From contig CP065013.1 of NCBI GenBank assembly GCA_016700315.1, positions 257,449 through 321,448 on the forward strand: a stretch of 64,000 bases of DNA. Reading direction: 5' to 3'. This document shows, piece after piece, positions 229 through 61,083 of this stretch. The notes under the pieces were generated by a model. It ran no database searches and was not told the DNA's origin. It was given only the letters and a program-made list of their open reading frames with translations. The position numbers were made by a program, and so were the translations under genes. Origin of the DNA: Candidatus Saccharimonadota bacterium (GTDB taxonomy: Bacteria > Patescibacteriota > Saccharimonadia > Saccharimonadales > SZUA-47). Every line of letters starts with the position of its first letter. Within the stretch, counting starts at the first letter, position 1.

Positions 229-303
229 GACCCCGTAGTTCAACGGATAGAATAACTCCGTCCTAAGGAGCAGATATTGGTTCGATTCCAGTCGGGGTTA
301 CCA
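229..303 (+). tRNA. tRNA-Arg (anticodon CCU), CCA encoded
   Basis: Cloverleaf folded by hand. Acceptor GACCCCG/CGGGGUU, D arm GUUC-AACGGAUA-GAAU, anticodon loop GU-CCU-AA, T arm AUUGG-UUCGAUU-CCAGU, discriminator A followed by CCA. Confidence 0.85.
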
Positions 304-2175: not shown

Positions 2176-3102
2176 ATGCTTTTTAGTAAACTAAAAACCG
2201 ACTTTCTGGAATATCTCGAGATTGAGCAGGGACGCTCACAAGCCACAATCAAAAACTACGACTTTTACTTGTCTAGGCTGATTGACTTTGAAGGTGATTT
2301 TGAGATAGAGCTGCTGGACGGCGAAATGGTAAGAAAGTGGCGGCTATGGCTAAACCGACTCGGTACTGCCACCAGTGACGAGCTGCAAAAAAACACTCAG
2401 AATTACCATCTGATAGCTCTAAGGGGATTTCTAAAATTCTGCGCCAAGCGTGACATAAAAGCTTTACCACCAGAGAAGATTGAGCTAGCAAAAGCCAAAC
2501 CAAAGCAGGTGACTTTTCTGAACGAAGAAGAACTGGAAAGACTTTTCAACATCCCAAAGCTAGACACCAAATCGGGCCTTCGTGACCGAGCTATCCTCGA
2601 GCTTCTTTACTCTAGCGGCTTGCGTGTTTCAGAGCTCACTGGGCTCAACCGCGACCACATCAACCTCAAGCGGCGCGAGTTTATGGTACGCGGCAAAGGG
2701 CAAAAGGACCGACCAATATTTATCAGCGAATCAGCCTCGTGGTGGCTTCAGAAGTACCTCGATAAGCGCGACGACAATGCACCTGCTCTTTTTATCCAGT
2801 ACAGCGGTAAATCAAGCAGTACAGACAACAGCGGCAGTTACCGCCGCCTCACTCCGCGCAGTGTCCAGCGCATGGTAAGCAAATCTGCCCTGCTCGCTGG
2901 CATAACAAAACACGTAAGTCCTCATACTCTCAGACATAGCTTTGCGACCGACATTCTAATGAACGGCGGCGACTTGCGTTCTGTCCAGGCCCTACTCGGC
3001 CACAGCAACATCTCTACCACCCAGATCTACACTCACGTCACTGATCCACACCTAAAAGCTGTCCACGACAAGTTCCACAAGGATATTAAGAGTAGCACTT
3101 GA
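2176..3102 (+). CDS. Tyrosine site-specific recombinase, XerC/XerD family
   Basis: C-terminal catalytic region HTLRHSFATDILMNGGDLRSVQALLGHSNISTTQIYTHV (R..HxxR..Y) and an N-terminal SAM-like domain. Confidence 0.9.
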   Translation: MLFSKLKTDFLEYLEIEQGRSQATIKNYDFYLSRLIDFEGDFEIELLDGEMVRKWRLWLNRLGTATSDELQKNTQNYHLIALRGFLKFCAKRDIKALPPEKIELAKAKPKQVTFLNEEELERLFNIPKLDTKSGLRDRAILELLYSSGLRVSELTGLNRDHINLKRREFMVRGKGQKDRPIFISESASWWLQKYLDKRDDNAPALFIQYSGKSSSTDNSGSYRRLTPRSVQRMVSKSALLAGITKHVSPHTLRHSFATDILMNGGDLRSVQALLGHSNISTTQIYTHVTDPHLKAVHDKFHKDIKSST

Positions 3103-3232
3103 TACGGCACCACTGATTACCGATTAGCGATAGAGATCCATACGTACTCCGTGCCCTTTACTGTTTGGCTAAAGACACGAGTCATGAGTTGTGAGTTTTG
3201 TGTTTTTTAGTTTTTGTATTTTTTCAAGTTTG

Positions 3233-3260
3233 TTTAGAATTTAGAGTTTAGGATTTAGAA
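3233..3260. repeat. Heptamer array TTTAGAA TTTAGAG TTTAGGA TTTAGAA within a 7-nt-periodic tract (about 3186-3297)
   Basis: Read directly. A near-identical array occurs inside the mutM coding region at 49454-49481. Confidence 0.9.
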
Positions 3261-3320
3261 TTTTACGCTTACTACCAACTACTTGCTACTATTTGTGGAT
3301 TAATACTTTATATATGACAC

Positions 3321-4340
3321 TTAATTACACCCGTTCTCAACCGTTGTTCCAGTAACGGTGTATAATTTGCAGATTTCATCCTTACTTTGCAGGCTGGCTT
3401 CGGGTTTAAGCGCCTGACTTTCAAAAGGCAAACGAACCTGAACACGCCGCAGTACATCGTTGGCACGACCAGTTGAGTCAACGACTACCTGAGCGTTAGC
3501 AAACGAAACTACATTCGTACCGGACTTACCGGCAACTTCTACGTTTGCCGAACTATATATGGATTTAATACGCGCATAGTAATTCATTGCAGGAAACCCG
3601 TTGACCGTAACCGAACAAGTATAGCCACCACTTTTGTCACAAAAAACCGCTTGGATATTCCCGCGTCGAGAACCACTGGCATCACCTGCTCTAAAGTTAG
3701 TATAGTTTACGGTTGTGACTGAAGCGCTACTATCTCCGCAAGGGTAAAAAAGAAATGTAGCTGTATTTTGATCTAGGAATTCTCGGTTCAGATTACCAGT
3801 TGCAGCATTCGGGAAAGGTATCAAATCAACTTCCAGCATTGCTACTCTGTCATCTCCCCACTGATTGAGAGCTGGAATCCGTCGTACATCGCAATCAGCA
3901 CCAGCGTTAACTCTAGCAGGATTGTTGTCGCTCCACCTAAAGTTCAGCTCTGTCGCCAAAGGATTGGTAAAAACTGGCACTACCCTAGCTCGGTCAGTTT
4001 TGATAAAGCCGTTATTGAACTTTAATTCTGTCGGCGTTGGATCAATCATGAGGCAAGTAAACCTCACTTCCGGTGTAGCAGAATCAATTGTCCCGTTATT
4101 ATATGTACTAACATCGCAATCATTCTTCTCAGCCAATACTCCGCCTCGCATCTTAGCAGCGGCGGCATTCACACCTGACTCAGCTGCGTAAAAAGCCTGC
4201 GTCGACAGCTGGTCATCAAGTGCTTGGCGCTGTTCACGACTAACCAAGCGCGCAAATCCTAACGTAATTAAAGAAAGGATCACCATTATCATGGCAGTAA
4301 CCATGATTGCAACCATTCCCGAGCGATTTTTTGTTGTCAT
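3321..4340 (-). CDS. PilX-like pilus assembly protein / large minor pseudopilin
   Basis: N-terminal hydrophobic helix MVAIMVTAMIMVILSLITLGFARLV followed by QAFYAAESG, as in the PilX N-terminal domain. It is the last gene of the minor-pilin block, and its start overlaps the upstream stop. Confidence 0.6.
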   Translation of the reverse strand: MTTKNRSGMVAIMVTAMIMVILSLITLGFARLVSREQRQALDDQLSTQAFYAAESGVNAAAAKMRGGVLAEKNDCDVSTYNNGTIDSATPEVRFTCLMIDPTPTELKFNNGFIKTDRARVVPVFTNPLATELNFRWSDNNPARVNAGADCDVRRIPALNQWGDDRVAMLEVDLIPFPNAATGNLNREFLDQNTATFLFYPCGDSSASVTTVNYTNFRAGDASGSRRGNIQAVFCDKSGGYTCSVTVNGFPAMNYYARIKSIYSSANVEVAGKSGTNVVSFANAQVVVDSTGRANDVLRRVQVRLPFESQALKPEASLQSKDEICKLYTVTGTTVENGCN

Positions 4341-34880: not shown

Positions 34881-34910
34881 TCGTCACTCCTTTCTTCTGC
34901 GAAGAAACGA

Positions 34911-34988
34911 GTTAGTAGTTAGTAGTTGGTAGTTGGTAGTTAGTAGCCTCATGAGCTACCATCTACCATCTACCTTCTACCTTCTACC
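34911..34988 (-). promoter_or_regulatory. Long imperfect hairpin in the rpsF leader built from two inverted heptamer arrays
   Basis: GTTAGTAGTTAGTAGTTGGTAGTTGGTAGTTAGTAGC (34911-47), a 7-nt loop, then GCTACCATCTACCATCTACCTTCTACCTTCTACC (34955-88). Hand pairing gives runs of 5-7 bp separated by mismatches roughly once per heptamer unit. Confidence 0.6.
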
Positions 34989-35114
34989 GACCTGTAACTT
35001 CTTTCGGTTTCTAGGTTAGGCGCACCAGAGGCCCCAACCAAGAAGTTAATTAATATTAAATATAGTATAAAGTATTATGAATAAAGTATCAAGTGCTAAG
35101 TGCTAACAAATGCG

Positions 35115-43675: not shown

Positions 43676-44383
43676 CTAGATATCTTCAATAGTTTTAGCA
43701 TCTTTTACTTCATAGCCTCCGATTTTCGTACGTCGAAGCTCAAGACAGTAAGCACCCGTACCAAGTTCTTTGCCAATATCTTCCGCAAGGGTACGAATGT
43801 ATGTGCCGCTGGAGACATGGGCACGTACTTTTATTTCTGGCCAGACGTACTCAAGCAGCTCCAGGCTATAAATCGTTACTTGGCGTGGTTTCAGTTCGAC
43901 TTTTTTGCCCGCCCTAGCAAGCTCATAAGCCTTTTTGCCGTTAACCTTGATAGCCGAATACTGCGGCGGCACCTGCGTGATCTCACCAACAAACTTAGCT
44001 AGCGCCTTTTGTACCTCTTCAGTAGATGGTAGATGGTAGTTAGTAGTTGGAGTGGCTTCTCTTCGTTCATCGTTCAGCATCCCTCGTTCTGTGATTTCCC
44101 CTTCCGGATCACCGGTCGTCGAGACAGCCCCAAGTCGAAAAGTCGCCTCATAGACCTTATCTTGCTTCATAAACTCGTCCTGACGCTTCGTGGCACTGCC
44201 AATCAGGATTATCAGCAGCCCCGTAGCAAAAGGATCGAGCGTGCCACTGTGGCCTACTTTTAGTTTCTGTTTACCGTTTACTGAGGACTGAGGACTATTT
44301 TTTCGTAAATCAGAGCGGATTTTGGCCACCACATCAAAACTAGTCCACCCCGATGGTTTATCTATCAGAATTACTTGATCCAT
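43676..44383 (-). CDS. truB: tRNA pseudouridine(55) synthase
   Basis: KVGHSGTLDPFATGLLIILIG catalytic Asp motif, and QVPPQYSAIKVNGKKAYELAR. Confidence 0.92.
   Translation of the reverse strand: MDQVILIDKPSGWTSFDVVAKIRSDLRKNSPQSSVNGKQKLKVGHSGTLDPFATGLLIILIGSATKRQDEFMKQDKVYEATFRLGAVSTTGDPEGEITERGMLNDERREATPTTNYHLPSTEEVQKALAKFVGEITQVPPQYSAIKVNGKKAYELARAGKKVELKPRQVTIYSLELLEYVWPEIKVRAHVSSGTYIRTLAEDIGKELGTGAYCLELRRTKIGGYEVKDAKTIEDI
44022..44088. repeat. Intragenic heptamer arrays inside truB: GTAGATG GTAGATG GTAGTTA GTAGTTG (44022-49) and CTTCGTT CATCGTT CAGCATC CCTCGTT (44061-88)
   Basis: Read directly. Translated in frame as ERGMLNDERREATPTTNYHLPST. The E. coli TruB sequence as I recall it is about 14 residues shorter here. 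Confidence 0.85.
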
Positions 44384-48771: not shown

Positions 48772-49743
48772 CTAGAGTTGCTGGCAGCTCGGGCACAGAT
48801 GTGTGCCTCGCCCAGCAACTCTTGTTTTAATGATGGTGGTTTGGCAGCGTGGGCACGGGGCACCTTCTTTGCGGAAGACTCTAGCGAAATCTATGTAACT
48901 TCCCCGCTTGCCTTCAGCGTTGACATAGTTACGGTCGGTGCTGCCGCCTTTTTCGATCGACAACTTGAGTACATAAATAATTTCAGAGTGCAGCTTAGTC
49001 AGTCTGGCATTTGAGAGATCCCGGACCAAGCTTGCCGGATGAATACTAGACCCCCAAAGCGATTCGTCAGCGTAGATATTGCCCACTCCTGCCAGAACTG
49101 TTTGATCCAAAAGCGCCGCCTTAATGCTGCTATTTTTGCGCTTTTGCAGTCTTTTGATTAAGACTTTGGGCATAAAATCTTCTTCTAGCGGTTCAGGCCC
49201 AACCTTTTTCATAAAATCAATTTCGGCGACAGCAATCGTCGGCATTAACCTTACCCAGCCAAACTTACGCTGGTCATTGAAGTATAGGTGCTCGCTATCC
49301 CCAAGAAAGAAATCTACCCTTGTCGATTTATCGGGCAGGTTACCTACTAGCGAATTGTTTGGATGCCCAGCCCCAAACCGAGTCTCTGTCTCGGAAAATT
49401 CTAAATCATGAGGACCATATCCTAAATTTTTTTCTTTTTTGTTTTTATTATTTTTTAGAATTTCGGATTTAGATTTTAGGGTTTTTCTTTGTCCGACAAA
49501 GACTAGTTGCCCTGTCATTTTAAGATGAATAACAAAAGTGTAGCCAGTCGACAAATCGATCATCAAAACTTTAGCTCGGCGACGCACATCAATAATTTTG
49601 GCGCCGATTGCAAACTTACTTACCTCTGTTTCTGGGTTTGGGAAGCTTTTTGCCCAGTCGTGAGTAATTTTTGTGATCGACTTACCAACAATCAAACTAA
49701 CTAGTCCGAGTCGGACGGTTTCAACTTCAGGCAGCTCTGGCAT
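48772..49743 (-). CDS. mutM: Formamidopyrimidine-DNA glycosylase
   Basis: MPELPEVETVRLGL N-terminus, H2TH region, and C-terminal zinc finger CPRCQTTIIKTRVAGRGTHLCPSCQ. Confidence 0.9.
   Translation of the reverse strand: MPELPEVETVRLGLVSLIVGKSITKITHDWAKSFPNPETEVSKFAIGAKIIDVRRRAKVLMIDLSTGYTFVIHLKMTGQLVFVGQRKTLKSKSEILKNNKNKKEKNLGYGPHDLEFSETETRFGAGHPNNSLVGNLPDKSTRVDFFLGDSEHLYFNDQRKFGWVRLMPTIAVAEIDFMKKVGPEPLEEDFMPKVLIKRLQKRKNSSIKAALLDQTVLAGVGNIYADESLWGSSIHPASLVRDLSNARLTKLHSEIIYVLKLSIEKGGSTDRNYVNAEGKRGSYIDFARVFRKEGAPCPRCQTTIIKTRVAGRGTHLCPSCQQL
49454..49481. repeat. Intragenic heptamer array in mutM: TTTAGAA TTTCGGA TTTAGAT TTTAGGG
   Basis: Read directly. Same unit family as the intergenic array at 3233-3260. 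Translated as KTLKSKSEILK. Confidence 0.88.
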
Positions 49744-55073: not shown

Positions 55074-55514
55074 TCAACTGTTCAAACCGCTATCACTGTC
55101 TTGACTATGTTTGCCAGTTCCTACAACATATAAATTCTTTGCGGCCTCATAGCCTGTGGCACCGTGTCTACCAGTTACGGGTGAGGTCGGCTTAATGTCT
55201 GTTGCTCCATTACGAGCTGCTTCGCCACTGAGAGAGCCAGGTTTTGCGACTGGCGCACTATTTCTACCTTTGTTTGGATCATCAACATAGGACATAGTGG
55301 TGGGCTTTTTCCCTAAGCCTTCTGGATCAACTGTTCGGAAAATAGGAGGTTCTCCGGAGCTATCACTGTCTTGACTATGTTTGCCAGTTCCTACAACACT
55401 TCTAGCCTTTTGGGCTGCTAATCTAGCAGTTTGGTTAATTCTCAATACTGTTGGGTCGTCCACTTTGGCTCCTTTGTTTGTTTTGTTACTTTTGTGCTTT
55501 ACTTTGTGTTTCAT
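55074..55514 (-). CDS. Basic low-complexity protein with internal repeat VVGTGKHSQDSDS...TVDPEGL
   Basis: ORF containing two copies of an ~80-100-nt module (55299-55398 and 55049-55128). Confidence 0.5.
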   Translation of the reverse strand: MKHKVKHKSNKTNKGAKVDDPTVLRINQTARLAAQKARSVVGTGKHSQDSDSSGEPPIFRTVDPEGLGKKPTTMSYVDDPNKGRNSAPVAKPGSLSGEAARNGATDIKPTSPVTGRHGATGYEAAKNLYVVGTGKHSQDSDSGLNS

Positions 55515-55519
55515 TTTTA

Positions 55520-56584
55520 TTACCTCACCACATTTCTACGTACTGGGCTAACAGGTAGCGGCGAGTCGTTTTTGCCAAAAATTGCATTTTTAGAATGTTT
55601 GTCGTAGGCGGCAGCCTTAGTGACCCATTGTTCAAAGGCTTTCTTTTTCACTGGGTCCGCGTTGATTTCTTTGAGTTTGTTTTCATTGTTAGTCGCACCT
55701 TTTACCCATGTTTCAAAGGCCTTCTTTTTGGCTGGATCCGCGCTAATTTCTTTGAGTTTTTGTGCTTGCGCAGCTGACAATGTAGAAGATTTGAAGTTCT
55801 TCATGCTTTGGCTTTCAGAGCCGCGCTGAGTCAGCGCCGAATGGTTCTCGACCATCATCTTGTTCCAGGCTTTTTGCTGATCTGGCGTTAACTTGCCATA
55901 GGCATTAGCAAATTTATCTAAGTCATTTCCAGTAATTTTCTTGTCTTTGCCATTAGCGTCTTTAATAATAATTGTTTTATTAGCGCCCGGCGCTCCGGGG
56001 TGTTGGCCCTGTCCAATTGTAGTTGACCCAGATCCGCCACTTTTGTTTGCTTCTATCCATTTATCTCTTTGTTCGGGTGTTAGCTTGTTGAGCGTTGCGG
56101 CAAACTTGGCTACGTCACTTTTGTTCAAAGTCTGACTGTTAACCGTGATTTTGTCGTCTTTGGGAGGTACTTGACCACCGTTTTTGGCCATGGCTTCGAA
56201 GTCTTTCCACCTCTGGCTGGGCTGATTGTGATGAGCCATCGCCCAAGAGCTGTCGGCGGCAATACGACTCATTTTTTGGAAGGCTTCCCACTCTGCATCA
56301 CCCCAGTACTTAGTGTCTTTGTTGAACTGAGCGATCTGCTCTTTACTGTGACCTCCCGGATGCTGACCTGGTGCAAACTTCAGTTCGCGGTTCGGCTGGC
56401 GAAGGTTCCAACTATCTGCCGATTTAAGTCCCGTACCGCTAATGTGCGTGTCACCACTTGGGGCTGGTTTATTGTCCATAGGCTTTGTTAGCTTGAGACC
56501 GCTTTTAGCACTAAGCATAATTGCAGCCGAGCCAGCTGCCGAGTTCATAAATTGATTTGTAGTTGAATTTCGACGTTTTGTCAT
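55520..56584 (-). CDS. K/G/P/N-rich hypothetical protein (354 aa) with helical repeats
   Basis: Repeats KFAATLNKLTPEQRDKWIE / KFANAYGKLTPDQQKAWNK and ADPAKKKAFETWV / ADPVKKKAFEQWV. No signal peptide. Confidence 0.6.
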   Translation of the reverse strand: MTKRRNSTTNQFMNSAAGSAAIMLSAKSGLKLTKPMDNKPAPSGDTHISGTGLKSADSWNLRQPNRELKFAPGQHPGGHSKEQIAQFNKDTKYWGDAEWEAFQKMSRIAADSSWAMAHHNQPSQRWKDFEAMAKNGGQVPPKDDKITVNSQTLNKSDVAKFAATLNKLTPEQRDKWIEANKSGGSGSTTIGQGQHPGAPGANKTIIIKDANGKDKKITGNDLDKFANAYGKLTPDQQKAWNKMMVENHSALTQRGSESQSMKNFKSSTLSAAQAQKLKEISADPAKKKAFETWVKGATNNENKLKEINADPVKKKAFEQWVTKAAAYDKHSKNAIFGKNDSPLPVSPVRRNVVR

Positions 56585-56800
56585 CTTAACTCTCTTTTTT
56601 ATTGTTTTTGTGTTTTAATTTATACCCGAACAATATCATATATAACCATAAGTAACAACGACTTATCCACACCCTGCATGCTATCATTTTTTCTTCCCAA
56701 CCTTTCCAAGGATAGTCCTTGGAAAGAAAAACCACACTTACGCGTTCAAAAGCTTGAGCTGCTTGACCAGTTGTCTCTGCTTGTCTCTGCACTTCCTCGT

Positions 56801-57290
56801 TCAGCGCAATTCTAGCGCCTTATCGATTATGGATAGTGTCTTGGGAACAAGTTTATCTATACCTTTGACGGCCTGTGCAACTTCTTCAATCGTGCCGCAA
56901 ACCACGTCGCAGGTACTAAAAACAAACGGGTCTTTGTAGTTTTGGATTATCTTACCGTCCATTTCTTTTTCACAACCGTTAAACTTACCGCCGTACGGTG
57001 CAAAACCAATCACAGGCTTGCCCAGATACTTTGCTATCAAGATCTCTTGTGAGCCACCCACACTAATATCGTCAGATAAATAGACAATTATGAAATCGGC
57101 TTTGTATATTAATTTGCAGTCTTTTGAAAAAATCCTGAAAATAACTCATAAAACTCTTGAATTCTTTTGTAGGATCAAGATTTTCTAAGAATTCCGCCAA
57201 ATCTGAAATTTCTGCGCAAAAATCATCTCTCCAATGGTCAGTTTCAAAAAATGATTTTTTTGATACCTTACCAGCTATATAAACTTTCAA
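56801..57290 (-). pseudogene. Nucleoside 2-deoxyribosyltransferase-like gene split by a +1 frameshift in a T6 run (or homopolymer error)
   Basis: TTG start at 57288-57290 with an AGGAGG Shine-Dalgarno sequence, then LKVYIAGK... After the run at 57127-57132 the reading continues in the next frame as SKDCKLIYKADFIIVYLSDDISVGGSQEILIAKYLGKPVIGF, the family's core motif. Confidence 0.6.
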
Positions 57291-57411
57291 CGTATTCCTC
57301 CTAAGGTATTGACTTAAGCCTCGCATCCAGCCGTTGTTTTGAGTTTTGTCGGCTCGCAGCATTTTATATTAACCCACTGATCTCTTCAAAATATACCAAA
57401 CTTCCGACACT

Positions 57412-57753: not shown

Positions 57754-58374
57754 TTTGTTATCGATGCCATCATTAAACTACGTAAACTCTCACCAGTAAA
57801 GCCCTTGAAATCAAAGTAATAGACAGTGCAACATAAGAAACTTTATTTTCTCCAATATTTTTGGCTTGGCCGTAGGCCCCAGTTATACTAGAGCAAAACT
57901 ATAAGAGATAAGACATCAACCCATCAAATTTTCATTGATCACACCCTATGTTAAGTTTTGCCGTAAATAGTCTGGTTCAAATCCACGAAAAATATTCCAC
58001 GTTGAAAGCAAAATAGGACATAATCGAGACCAGTGGTTAATTAACGCTCGTACCCTAAAATTGCCTTTGGTTATCCAAGCCTATCAACTTACAAATAGCC
58101 GAGCTATTAGAATAAACCTCAATAAAATAATGGAGAAATGGTGGTAACTCATCTTTAAATACCCACCAAACTGCCATGTATCAAAAACATGACAATCAAA
58201 AGATAATAGCCACCCAATGCTAAAAGCCCAAGATAAACATTTTTATCGAAGAGCTGAACTCTTTGCGTAATAGGCCTGTGGTTCTTTTCTAGATCTCGAC
58301 AAGCAAACTCAAAATTATCCATATCCCTTGCCAACTATACCGTAAAATGAAATACCTGTAAAACTCGTGGTTAA

Positions 58375-61083
58375 TCATAGCTCCCCCCATGTTTTACCGG
58401 TGGATATGTCTACACGCAGTTTTACGCCCAGCTCTGGATAAATATTTTCCATAGTCTGCTTCATCATTTTGCCAACCCGCTCAGCATCAGCTTCGGCACA
58501 TTCAACCAAAATACTGTCATGTATCTGCAATATCTGTCTCGGCTCTTCCTCGTTCCTCGTTCCTCGTTCCTCGTTCCAGTGTCTAAATTGGCTTTCTAAT
58601 TTAGACATTGCCATCTTGGTTATATCAGCAGCGCCTCCCTGAATTGGCATATTGATTGCGGCCCGCAAAGCTGCCTCACGTACGACAAAATTGCTGCTCC
58701 GAGCATCCGGCGTTGGGCGGCGACGTCCGAGCGGCGTCTCCACAAAACCTTTGTTTTTGGCTTGGTCACGAAAACGCTCCATCATTGCCTTCAGTTTGGG
58801 GCGCACCTCGAAGTATTTATCGATAAACTTTTTGGAATCGGCGTAGCTCATGCCCGTTCCTTCACTGAGTCCGTGAACACCTTGCCCATACAAAATACCG
58901 AAATTAACAGCTTTGGCCGCGTAGCGCATCTCTTTGCTGACTTCTTCGGGCTTGACACCTTGAACCAAAGCGGCCGTCTCGATATGAATGTCTCGATCAG
59001 AGTTAAACGACTCAATCATTGCTTGATCACCGCTCAGTGCCGCGGCAATGCGAAGCTCAAACTGACTGTAGTCGGCACTCACCAATACATTGCCAGGCTC
59101 GGCGATAAAGCCAGTTCTGATCTCTCGACCAATTTCGGTGCGGATAGGAATGTTCTGCAAGTTGGGATCGTTGCTACTAAGCCGGCCAGTTGCTGCGACC
59201 GTCAGCGCCAGTGTTGTATGTATACGATTGTTCTCATCTACCTGCTCTGGCAGCGTATCTACGTAGGTACTTTTGAGCTTTGTGTACTCACGATATTTCT
59301 CGATATCGTTGATGATCGGGTGAAGGTCTTTTAGTTTAGCGAGTACGTTACTGGCTGTGCTGAAGTGGCCAGCCTTCCCTTTCTTGCTTGCGATTGTAGG
59401 CAAGTTTAGCTTCACAAACAAAATATCACTCAGCTGGCTAGGACTTGAGATATTAAACTCTTGGTCGGCATAGCCATAAATTGTTTGTTCAATGTCACTA
59501 ATTTGATCTGTTAACTTGTCAGATAAAACCTTGAAAAAGCTTGGCTCAATCTTCACCCCAGTACGCTCAATTCGAGCTAAGACTGGTATCACTGGCCAGT
59601 CCACTTGCTCGGCCATTTTGATCAAACTTGTAACCTCGCTCATTTGCTCACCCTGTCGCTCAGCAAGCCCCCGGATCACAGCGCAGATTTCTGGTAGCTT
59701 AATTAGCGCTTCATCATCATCAATATTGTCGAGCTCACCAGCGTAGTTTAGATCCTCGCTCGCAAGCGCCGTAAGCGAAAAATCTCGCCTCAGAGAATTA
59801 ACAATAAATGCGCCAACTTGTGTGTCGTGGCTTACCTGCGGCAAGTTTTCTATCCCAAGCTCGAGTAAAATTTGAAAGATATTCTTTAAATCGTGCCCGG
59901 TAACGGCTTTGCCGTTTAGTAGTTGGTCGATGGTAGATGGTAGATGGGAATTAGCTACTGATTTTCTTAAATCAAAAATATAGCAATTTGTTTTGTCAGA
60001 TAGCGCCAAAACAGTTGGCTCGTGACCGTGCTTACCACTGCTGCGAGCAAAAATTACTACATCCCCTTCAAGCTGCAGCGATGACACTGCGGAGCTCTCC
60101 TGAACGTAGACAGGTGTCGGGGTTTTGAGATCGAGGATTGCCGCACTTATGTTTGACGAAAGGTCATTTGTCGATTCTGCAACTGCTACTTTGGACGAAT
60201 CACTACGCATTCCTTGTGGCAAGTTGCGCAGCAGGCTCCTGAACTCTAGGCGCTTTAGTATGCTTGCCAGCTCATTCGTATCTAGCTTATTTATGTCCAT
60301 TTGTTCAAGGTCCAGCTCGATTGGCGCATCTGCGTAAAGTCGAGCAATTTCTTTACTCATGTAGGCCGAATCTCGCCCCGCTTCAAGCTTTTTCTGTACT
60401 GCGCCCTTGGTGAGAGCAACATTCTCGTAAACACCATCGAGAGTTTTGTATTGTTTAAGTAGTTCAACCGCTGTTTTTTCACCAATGCCAGGAACACCGG
60501 GAATGTTGTCCGACGAATCGCCTTTTAGAGCTTTTAAGTCCAGAAATTGCTCAGGCTCGAGGCCGTATTTATCACGAAATTGTTCTGGCCGATAAAGCTC
60601 GATATTTGTTAGTCCTTTTTTGAGCGCATAGACATGGGTGTTCTCGCTAATGCACTGCAGTGCATCAAGATCACTGGTGATTAGCATTGTCTCTAACCCG
60701 GCGGCATCAGCTTTTTTAGCCAGGCCACACATAATATCGTCTGCCTCGTAATCATCGAGTTCGTATAGCGGCCAATTTAGTGCTCTTAGCAGCTCGTGAA
60801 GAATAGGAATTTGTACATAAAAGTCTGGCGGTGCCGGCTTTCGTCCTGCCTTGTAGTCTGGGTAGACGGCTAGTCGTTTTCGGATATTGGTTTTTGGTTT
60901 ATCCCAAGCTACACAAACATAATCTGGTTTGAGCCGCTTAATCAGCTCCAGCGCCATTGCTGCGAAGCCATAAACTCCCCCTGTTGGCGTCCCGTCGGCG
61001 GTCGAAAGCCCCGGCATCGCGTAATAGCCACGGTAAAAGACTGACTTTCCGTCGATAATCGCAAGTTTTTTTCTACTCTCCAT
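58375..61083 (-). CDS. polA: DNA polymerase I
   Basis: 5'-nuclease domain, DYSQFELRIAA (motif A), KAVNFGILYGQG (motif B) and QIHDSILVE (motif C). Confidence 0.94.
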   Translation of the reverse strand: MESRKKLAIIDGKSVFYRGYYAMPGLSTADGTPTGGVYGFAAMALELIKRLKPDYVCVAWDKPKTNIRKRLAVYPDYKAGRKPAPPDFYVQIPILHELLRALNWPLYELDDYEADDIMCGLAKKADAAGLETMLITSDLDALQCISENTHVYALKKGLTNIELYRPEQFRDKYGLEPEQFLDLKALKGDSSDNIPGVPGIGEKTAVELLKQYKTLDGVYENVALTKGAVQKKLEAGRDSAYMSKEIARLYADAPIELDLEQMDINKLDTNELASILKRLEFRSLLRNLPQGMRSDSSKVAVAESTNDLSSNISAAILDLKTPTPVYVQESSAVSSLQLEGDVVIFARSSGKHGHEPTVLALSDKTNCYIFDLRKSVANSHLPSTIDQLLNGKAVTGHDLKNIFQILLELGIENLPQVSHDTQVGAFIVNSLRRDFSLTALASEDLNYAGELDNIDDDEALIKLPEICAVIRGLAERQGEQMSEVTSLIKMAEQVDWPVIPVLARIERTGVKIEPSFFKVLSDKLTDQISDIEQTIYGYADQEFNISSPSQLSDILFVKLNLPTIASKKGKAGHFSTASNVLAKLKDLHPIINDIEKYREYTKLKSTYVDTLPEQVDENNRIHTTLALTVAATGRLSSNDPNLQNIPIRTEIGREIRTGFIAEPGNVLVSADYSQFELRIAAALSGDQAMIESFNSDRDIHIETAALVQGVKPEEVSKEMRYAAKAVNFGILYGQGVHGLSEGTGMSYADSKKFIDKYFEVRPKLKAMMERFRDQAKNKGFVETPLGRRRPTPDARSSNFVVREAALRAAINMPIQGGAADITKMAMSKLESQFRHWNEERGTRNEEEPRQILQIHDSILVECAEADAERVGKMMKQTMENIYPELGVKLRVDISTGKTWGEL
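58548..58607. repeat. Intragenic module inside polA: perfect (CCTCGTT)x4 plus adjacent 10-bp-stem hairpin TGTCTAAATT-GGCTTTCT-AATTTAGACA
   Basis: Read directly. Translated in frame as KLESQFRHWNEERGTRNEEEPRQ, just upstream of motif C. Confidence 0.92.
59917..59951. repeat. Second intragenic heptamer array in polA: TAGTAGT TGGTCGA TGGTAGA TGGTAGA TGGGAAT
   Basis: Read directly. Same unit family as the truB and rpsF-leader arrays. Translated as ANSHLPSTIDQLL. Confidence 0.85.

Follow-up and report, generated by a model that had tools for sequence, protein, structure and literature searches.

The fpg Gene and Its In-Frame Insert

The DNA analysed here, referred to as the window, is a 64,000-nt stretch of contig CP065013.1 from a Saccharibacterium (TM7) that is rich in tandem arrays of 7-nt units, and one of these arrays lies within the intact open reading frame (ORF) of its fpg (mutM) gene (Table 1). 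The array had been singled out in an original prediction, made from the sequence alone, because a stop codon was missing from the one unit where it would have interrupted the gene. We found that it makes up the 5′ arm of an in-frame fpg segment of 105 nt with a 7-nt periodicity, which is predicted to be translated as a disordered surface loop rich in lysine and asparagine.

The Pfam domains Fapy_DNA_glyco, H2TH, and zf-FPG_IleRS all scored above their cut-offs in the window protein, solved MutM structures matched it (best E = 2e-51, that is, about 1e-51), and P2, E3, and the cysteines were invariant across the alignment of Fpg orthologues. Its nearest named relatives are Candidatus Saccharibacteria or Saccharimonadales, and the related loci, among the matches listed, are Saccharibacterial metagenome-assembled genomes (MAGs).

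The loop holding the insert comprises 40 residues in the window protein and 5 (VGETR or RGEQN) in short-loop Saccharibacterial orthologues, while residues 87 to 92 of the Geobacillus MutM chain align to residues 86 to 139 of the query. The original prediction correctly regarded the segment as an insertion relative to known Fpg proteins but put its size at about 25 residues; the excess is about 35 residues compared with short-loop Fpg and about 48 compared with Geobacillus MutM. At the DNA level, the insert displayed periodicity at lag 7 (z = 3.2 relative to shuffles), and the remainder of the gene displayed none. In an AlphaFold2 model computed with the orthologue alignment, residues 88 to 117 had predicted local distance difference test (pLDDT) values <50 and were flanked by strands 78–85 and 120–125; the insert is thereby predicted to be a disordered excursion from a beta-hairpin turn.

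Within the insert, an A-rich spacer lies between a left and a right heptamer array, the outer units of the right array being reverse complements of units of the left-arm family, and the 3′ half codes for L-x-x-x-x-x-D-L-E-F. Reading the insert boundaries, for which no systematic search was made, revealed neither terminal inverted repeats nor target-site duplications, and the RNA fold of the insert was no better than that of shuffles (z = −0.59).

The reading frame passes through the left array as ACC CTA AAA TCT AAA TCC GAA ATT CTA AAA. Because a period of 7 shifts the frame by one with each unit, only the TAA-equivalent triplet of unit 3 falls in frame, where it reads GAA and codes for E94 (window 49462–49464); units 1, 2, and 4 carry real TAA triplets, whose frames are +1, +2, and +1, respectively. 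These frames, as well as the positions and spelling of this array and of a related intergenic array, agree with what the original prediction had reported. A parallel that it did not mention is present in the right array, in which unit 3, the sole unit whose TAG would be in frame, carries CAT (H112, 49408–49410).

Table 1. Position of the fpg gene, the components of its insert, and other heptamer arrays in the window.
Feature	Position	Strand	Description
fpg/mutM gene	48772..49743	-	323 aa, intact ORF; PELPEVE N-terminus, C-terminal zinc finger
In-frame insert in fpg	49387..49491	-	35 codons, 105 nt (15 x 7), residues about Q85-T119; loop joining two N-terminal-domain beta strands
Left heptamer array of the insert	49454..49481	-	CCCTAAA ATCTAAA TCCGAAA TTCTAAA, coding T-L-K-S-K-S-E-I-L-K
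A-rich spacer of the insert	49427..49453	-	AAATAATAAAAACAAAAAAGAAAAAAA, 27 nt, coding N-N-K-N-K-K-E-K-N
Right heptamer array of the insert	49399..49426	-	TTTAGGA TATGGTC CTCATGA TTTAGAA, coding L-G-Y-G-P-H-D-L-E
Intergenic array	3233..3260	-	TTCTAAA TCCTAAA CTCTAAA TTCTAAA; between two convergent genes
Extended heptamer-phased intergenic tract	3172..3300		around the 3233-3260 array
Heptamer array inside truB	44018..44053	-	CTACTAA/CTACCAT units, coding TPTTNYHLPSTE; adjoins 14-residue insertion that orthologues lack
Heptamer array inside polA	58537..58586	-	(AGGAACG)x4, coding NEERGTRNEEE; length-variable loop
Heptamer array inside polA	59914..59957	-	CTACCAT/CTACCAA/CTACTAA, coding SHLPSTIDQ; variable region
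Inverted heptamer-array pair	34902..34994		(TAGTTRG)x5 then (CTACCWT)x5; intergenic, predicted hairpin

Relation to the Intergenic Array

Tandem Repeats Finder reported period-7 arrays with the consensus TTTAGAA at both sites, with 3.7 copies at 49454–49479 and 4.4 copies at 3233–3263. The phased pattern CTAAANNCTAAANNCNAAANNCTAAA has exactly two sites in the window, the left fpg array and the intergenic array, and was found in none of 100 dinucleotide-preserving shuffles; the phased pattern is no chance occurrence.

The two arrays had been described as near-copies, a term that proved too strong. In the register originally proposed, 21 of 28 positions are identical (75%), and the best match in the window to the 126-nt insert region lies at 3206–3264 (59 nt, 69.5% identity). 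About equally good is the match between the other arm of the insert and the 3233–3260 array in the opposite orientation (35 nt, 74%). The A-rich tract that follows the array is similar in the fpg insert and in the intergenic tract, and no shared flanks or target duplication were detected between the two. These alignments show the intergenic and fpg arrays to be members of a common unit family, and the intergenic array is not the source copy.

Along the extended tract at 3172–3300, the unit drifts stepwise from GAGTCAT through GAGTTGT, GAGTTTT, GTGTTTT, (TTAGTTT, TAGAATT), and TTTAGAA to finally CTACCAA-type units, a progression that looks like serial copying with error. The DNA fold of 3165–3305 was not significant (z = 0.04), and a promoter and terminator scan of 3000–3450 disclosed nothing beyond shuffle expectation.

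The Fpg Loop across Orthologues

Over 120 Fpg orthologues, the length of the loop varied from 5 to 81 residues; about 35 of them, in several clades, have only 5 to 6 residues, and these short forms are scattered. Among the matches listed in a scan of genome contigs, most were Fpg genes with a short loop or unrelated ones. The DNA was retrieved for 13 orthologues, and periodicity was tested in the window and 10 of these orthologues. Each of the 11 inserts so examined was lag-7 periodic (z = 3.2–6.0), and the rest of each gene was not. Insert lengths followed no clear pattern, by eye, as multiples of 7 residues.

Eight inserts match the architecture seen in the window, namely a variable NNC(A/T)AAA left array, an A-rich spacer, and a four-unit (TTTGGAA)x4-like right block, which in these eight codes for L-E-F-x-x-W-D-L-E-F. 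The right array of the window corresponds to the block coding LEFxxWDLEF in L082 to L088, and the L-x-x-x-x-x-D-L-E-F 3′ half recurs in several Saccharibacterial clades. In that frame a pure TTTGGAA array translates to LEFGIWNLEF, and L083 has LELGAWDLEI. Since a pure array encodes the LEF block, the widely conserved LEF motif is itself array-derived.

A further comparison is provided by L088, whose Fpg is about 69% identical to that of the window. The two inserts are collinear over their full length (z = 6.8 for the whole, z = 4.7 for the left half) and have CGAAATTC, containing the GAA codon, in common; L088 also has a G in the adjacent unit, which is out of frame and had no stop to remove. 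Because GAA within this stretch is common to an orthologue of such modest identity, GAA at E94 is probably old and not a recent change, and the comparison fits a change in either direction between T and G. In agreement with this, nine strain-level protein clusters (98–100% identical) all have 323 aa, an equal loop length, and E at position 94. The original prediction had named conservation of the segment outside the lineage as evidence that would speak against it, and this is what the orthologue alignment revealed, with the 3′ half in several clades and the whole segment collinear in L088.

Other unit families occupy the same Fpg loop elsewhere, including CTACYAA in L089, GTAGATG followed by CTACTAA/CTACCAA in L090, and GAGTCAT in L103. 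Classical repetitive extragenic palindromic (REP)-like hairpins are found there as well; the hairpin ATTCCCGC-GAAG-GCGGGAAT lies in frame in the Fpg loop of L087 (L087 5324–6376), and hairpins of this type yield the loop peptides REGGNPV, WIPDQVGNDE, and HPELVEGS in other Saccharibacteria. REP-like in-frame loops were also observed in proteins P0056, P0116, P0118, P0017, P0057, P0035, and P0088 and in the polA loop of L084. The Fpg protein P0105 has a further insertion of about 53 residues (SRKGDPHEVHARKDRSAQVAV...), unrelated to the first, between the conserved STRV and FNDQRKFGW blocks of the N-terminal domain.

Loop Turnover between Close Genomes

Comparison of L084 and L103 disclosed a complete change of loop between close relatives. 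The two Fpg proteins are 96% identical outside the loop and the genes are embedded in kilobases of 100% identical flanking DNA, yet the loop DNA is unrelated. From gene position +100 to +389, identity drops to 87%, 76%, and 56%, after which it is 100% again. The possibility that the two loops represent one DNA read in shifted frames was rejected, because stops interrupt the alternative frames and the two DNAs cannot be aligned. The mosaic is the trace expected from the import of a divergent allele by homologous recombination, and such import would account as well for the scattered occurrence of loop types over the protein tree. Loop alleles appear to be exchanged by homologous recombination, which would be the cause of the L084/L103 replacement.

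At shorter distance, the window and its conspecific L081 are 98.75% identical over 15.7 kb, with one 1-nt gap. Two segments of the window depart from this value, 58169–59690 (the 3′ part of polA plus the spacer directly downstream) with 90.5% identity and 55301–57304 with 95.4%. Both contain many small gaps and some unalignable stretches, which suggests within-species recombination mosaics.

Heptamer Arrays in the Window and Its Relatives

Arrays were counted by lag autocorrelation over the 64 kb. The scan returned 27 to 28 arrays at lag 7 and 0 to 2 at lags 5, 6, 8, and 10. The part of the window outside long ORFs, 16% of its length, holds approximately 18 of the 28, often adjacent to one another; the arrays represent many different unit families. 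In conspecific locus L081, 7 period-7 arrays were present in 21 kb, while seven other insert-bearing lineages had 6 in 104 kb and twelve Saccharibacteria with an insert-free Fpg had 0 in 190 kb. The abundance of period-7 arrays is lineage-specific. Within the literature library searched, no report of heptanucleotide repeats in Saccharibacteria was retrieved.

Besides fpg, arrays are found within truB and polA, where they coincide with insertions or variable loops; other lineages have different units in the same loops. The truB array region (44000–44100) has 10 substitutions per 100 nt relative to L081, compared with a background of about 1.25%, and its peptide reads TPTTNYHLPST in the window and TETTNHHIPST, of the same length, in L081. 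The polA loop at 58537–58586 holds a GATGGAA array in L090 and no insert in L089, and both the PolA and TruB loops of L090 hold arrays of other units than those of the window. The CTACYWW family links several of these places, being found at 34949 (intergenic) and 3265–3300, within the truB and polA genes, and, in L089 and L090, within the Fpg loop. An insertion of about 54 residues (ARGFCTEMQGSGSASNGVSRTSGTVTRVAQATDA...), absent from other TruB orthologues, was also observed in truB of L085 (6521–7381) and L086 (15212–16072).

Further observations concern the intergenic spacers of the window. The two arrays at 34902–34994 are near reverse complements about a CTCATGAG centre and are predicted to form a long imperfect DNA hairpin (z = −3.56); another two arrays follow at 35047–35108, so that the 234-nt spacer is almost wholly repeat. 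Three successive heptamer arrays, one of them a perfect (CTCTAAC)x6, occupy positions 35–163, just upstream of the only tRNA gene of the window (229–300), which was also the sole match in an Rfam scan of the window. The palindrome TCATGA / CTCATGAG was considered as an array core, given its presence at 3182, 28694, 34949, and 49406, and was discarded; the hexamer occurs 20 times in the window, ordinary for 6-bp palindromes, and mostly distant from arrays.

Beyond this group of organisms, YYCTAAA-family arrays were seen in unrelated metagenome contigs with a GC content of 38–64% (L091, L092, L094, L095, L096, L099, and L102). Several of these carry more period-7 arrays, and in some an array stops a few bases before an ATG. 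The locus L029, a 20.8-kb piece of a Candidatus Omnitrophota MAG, contains 6 stringent period-7 arrays, compared with 0.16 per 10 kb in other non-Saccharibacterial loci, and represents another heptamer-rich uncultivated lineage.

Stop Codons in Genic Arrays

The original prediction drew its main argument from the observation that exactly the in-frame unit deviates. This argument is circular: in-frame stops are by definition absent from an intact ORF, and the deviation of the in-frame unit follows from the selection of the case, would be seen in any intact ORF, and supplies no independent evidence. The same limitation was stated by MacGregor for the TAACTGA repeats, in that heptamers bearing stops in every frame are excluded from ORFs in the forward orientation (PMC4679880).

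A broader look at stop avoidance was taken with the nine genic arrays of the window (336 nt) and its intergenic arrays (720 nt). On the sense strand, the genic arrays contain 19 stop triplets (5.7 per 100 nt), all out of frame, and on the antisense strand 22 (6.5 per 100 nt). Each strand of the intergenic arrays contains 55–61 (about 8.1 per 100 nt), and the out-of-frame background of all genes is 5.3 per 100 nt. The genic sense density is thus two-thirds of the intergenic-array density, as it would be if in-frame stops alone had been lost, and equally the ordinary out-of-frame density of coding DNA, two comparisons between which nine arrays cannot discriminate.

In order to see which base is usual at the critical position, metagenomes were scanned with a 22-nt flanking pattern in which that base was left free. 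The pattern matched 12 unrelated loci, none of them fpg, and the base was T in 7, A in 3, C in 2, and G in 0; a 29-nt pattern matched nothing. This upholds the view of the original prediction that T is the canonical base of the unit family and the G in fpg the exception.

Origin of the Insert

We consider it probable that the insert arose from a lineage-specific heptanucleotide simple-repeat process, strong in this species, the products of which are tolerated in spacers and in a few disordered loops. On this account the Fpg loop is of ancient origin and hypervariable, and recombination apparently exchanges it. The Saccharibacterial lineage would generate and keep many short arrays of 7-nt units, polymerase slippage being the putative generator that copies a neighbouring unit with errors. 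Arrays would accumulate where they are harmless, in intergenic spacers and in the permissive loops of Fpg, TruB, and PolA, and the loops themselves may lack a function. Among long simple sequence repeats (LSSR), heptanucleotides are the most abundant class in many prokaryotes, for which slippage has been put forward as an explanation (cited in PMC4679880 and PMC4692102).

Two constraints would shape such arrays inside genes. A genic array must have a total length divisible by 3, with the effect that units come in threes, and as a period of 7 cycles through all three frames, every third unit of an array bearing TAA or TAG must deviate. Both arms of the fpg insert fit this rule, with GAA on the left and CAT on the right. 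Given that the loop is old and hypervariable, GAA would be a long-standing exception enforced by selection and not the mark of a recent rescue.

Several findings weigh against this account. The window and L081 differ by no 7-nt indel and no gain or loss of a unit over their 15.7 kb, for which the divergence may be too small, and ongoing slippage thus receives no demonstration from this pair. Units are shared more often than expected: 16 pairs of arrays within the window match at 6/7 positions or more (at least 6/7), relative to 7.8 expected, and 4 of 17 arrays from other Saccharibacteria have an exact unit of the window, relative to 0.55 expected (P = 0.002). Such sharing is not expected from purely local slippage out of random seeds and keeps a mobile cassette in contention. 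Several elements are inverted array pairs, one of which folds significantly, hinting at a structured or mobile unit, and the patchy presence of inserts on the Fpg tree needs many losses or exchanges.

The main rival is that the insert is a small mobile palindromic cassette, an inverted heptamer-array pair comparable to Rickettsia palindromic elements (RPE) or miniature inverted-repeat transposable elements (MITE), which enters permissive loops in frame and is also placed between genes. In a wider form, Saccharibacteria would share a repertoire of inverted-array cassettes that move between spacers and the Fpg, TruB, and PolA loops through transposition or recombination between lineages. We regard both forms as unlikely. 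The arms of the inserts do form reverse-complement families, CTAAA/TTTAG in the window and CCAAA/TTTGG in L083 to L087, with GTAGATG and then CTACYAA in L090; the intergenic pair at 34902–34994 folds; exact units are common to different genomes; and REP-like hairpins, such as that of L087, with their peptides are found in Fpg and PolA loops elsewhere. In Rickettsia, RPE are inserted in frame (PMC10969869). On the other hand, no second full-length copy of the insert exists in the 64 kb or in the loci compared, where the best match is the 59-nt one reported above, and the reading of the boundaries mentioned earlier, which was no systematic search, saw neither terminal inverted repeats nor target-site duplications. 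Neither the insert nor the tract at 3165–3305 folds significantly, and neighbouring arrays are usually unrelated to one another. The sole replacement observed, that between L084 and L103, has diverged flanks and resembles recombination, not transposition.

The scenario of the original prediction, that a stop-laden copy of the intergenic YYCTAAA array was recently inserted into fpg and that a change of TAA to GAA at or after insertion saved the gene, is in our view improbable. Part of it stands, since the insert is repeat-derived, is an insertion relative to other Fpg proteins, and is under a no-stop constraint. The unit family shared with 3233–3260, the A-rich tract after both arrays, and the canonical T at the critical base elsewhere would also fit. 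However, the identity between the two arrays is limited and they share neither flanks nor a target duplication; CGAAATTC and the whole insert are collinear in L088, with the additional out-of-frame G; the nine strain-level clusters are uniform in loop length and in E; and the stop argument is circular. The insert is accordingly neither recent nor private to this genome, and nothing points specifically to a rescue.

Selection on the loop as a peptide, either a basic tail that aids DNA binding or a partner-binding LEF motif, with the periodicity left as a trace of its origin, is less probable still. The L-E-F...D-L-E-F block is kept in several clades, the left half is K- and N-rich, and most sampled orthologues retain the loop. 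Against these points, about 35 of the 120 orthologues, in several clades, manage with 5–6 residues, proteins 96% identical outside the loop bear unrelated loops, the segment is predicted to be disordered, and the conserved block is the product of a (TTTGGAA)x4 array.

Repeats in repair genes act as contingency switches in some pathogens. That fpg carries such a tract, in which the gain or loss of a single 7-nt unit, not being a multiple of 3, would frameshift the gene and toggle a mutator state, is very improbable, as the units are imperfect (four different heptamers), the nine strain-level clusters all have 323 aa and the same loop length, and only point changes separate the arrays of the window from those of L081, where no 7-nt indel occurs over 15.7 kb.

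Significance and Comparison with Known Systems

The stop-codon point itself matters little, because any intact gene must show it. Of more consequence under the simple-repeat account we prefer is that a host-dependent bacterium with a reduced genome would build spacer DNA and disordered loops from 7-nt repeats, and that the same loops of essential enzymes would be repeatedly recolonised or swapped across the class. The insert would thereby offer a natural case for how non-triplet repeats turn into coding sequence and illustrates the extent of insertion that the DNA glycosylase fold tolerates. Our data suggest that the loops could be usable as fast strain markers for Saccharibacteria. They also carry a warning for annotation, in that low-complexity insertions in proteins of the Candidate Phyla Radiation (CPR) may be repeat DNA and not functional domains. 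If mobile cassettes were responsible after all, they would represent a CPR counterpart of the in-frame palindromic elements of Rickettsia that keeps the loops hypervariable.

Among known systems, phase-variable contingency loci resemble the fpg insert in having a tandem repeat within an ORF whose unit is not a multiple of 3; in contrast to them, the fpg units are imperfect and no length polymorphism was seen among strains. The tandem repeats of Borgs are reported to be recent and fast-evolving repeats in ORFs that give rise to disordered, low-complexity segments (PMC9879509), as do those considered here. Borgs, however, are archaeal extrachromosomal elements, whereas the window presents bacterial 7-nt units that must be added in threes and hold no in-frame stops.

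Another likeness exists to the RPE (Ogata et al. 2000, summarised in PMC10969869), in which repeat DNA is tolerated in frame in unrelated housekeeping genes with the protein fold undisturbed; the two-armed layout of the fpg insert is palindrome-like as well. RPE are families of about 100–150 bp with conserved sequence and peptide (PMC10969869), while the copies in the window share a 7-nt unit family only. Unlike an RPE, the fpg insert is without a second full-length copy, and its fold is not significant.

The fpg insert belongs to the known kind of heptanucleotide simple repeats. Examples of heptanucleotide LSSR, known from Calothrix/Nostoc, Xanthomonas, and Beggiatoaceae, include the cyanobacterial short tandemly repeated repetitive (STRR) sequences, GGGAATC in Xanthomonas, GGGGAYT in Nostoc, and TAACTGA in Beggiatoaceae (PMC4679880, PMC4692102). 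Shared with these are the head-to-tail 7-nt units in 3–7 copies, the intergenic enrichment, the lineage-specific abundance, the inverted pairs, and the manner in which stop codons limit orientation inside ORFs (PMC4679880, PMC4692102). The window differs from known LSSR in having many unit families, none of them dominant, and in its host, a reduced-genome Saccharibacterium, in which arrays are also translated in core enzymes as hypervariable loops.

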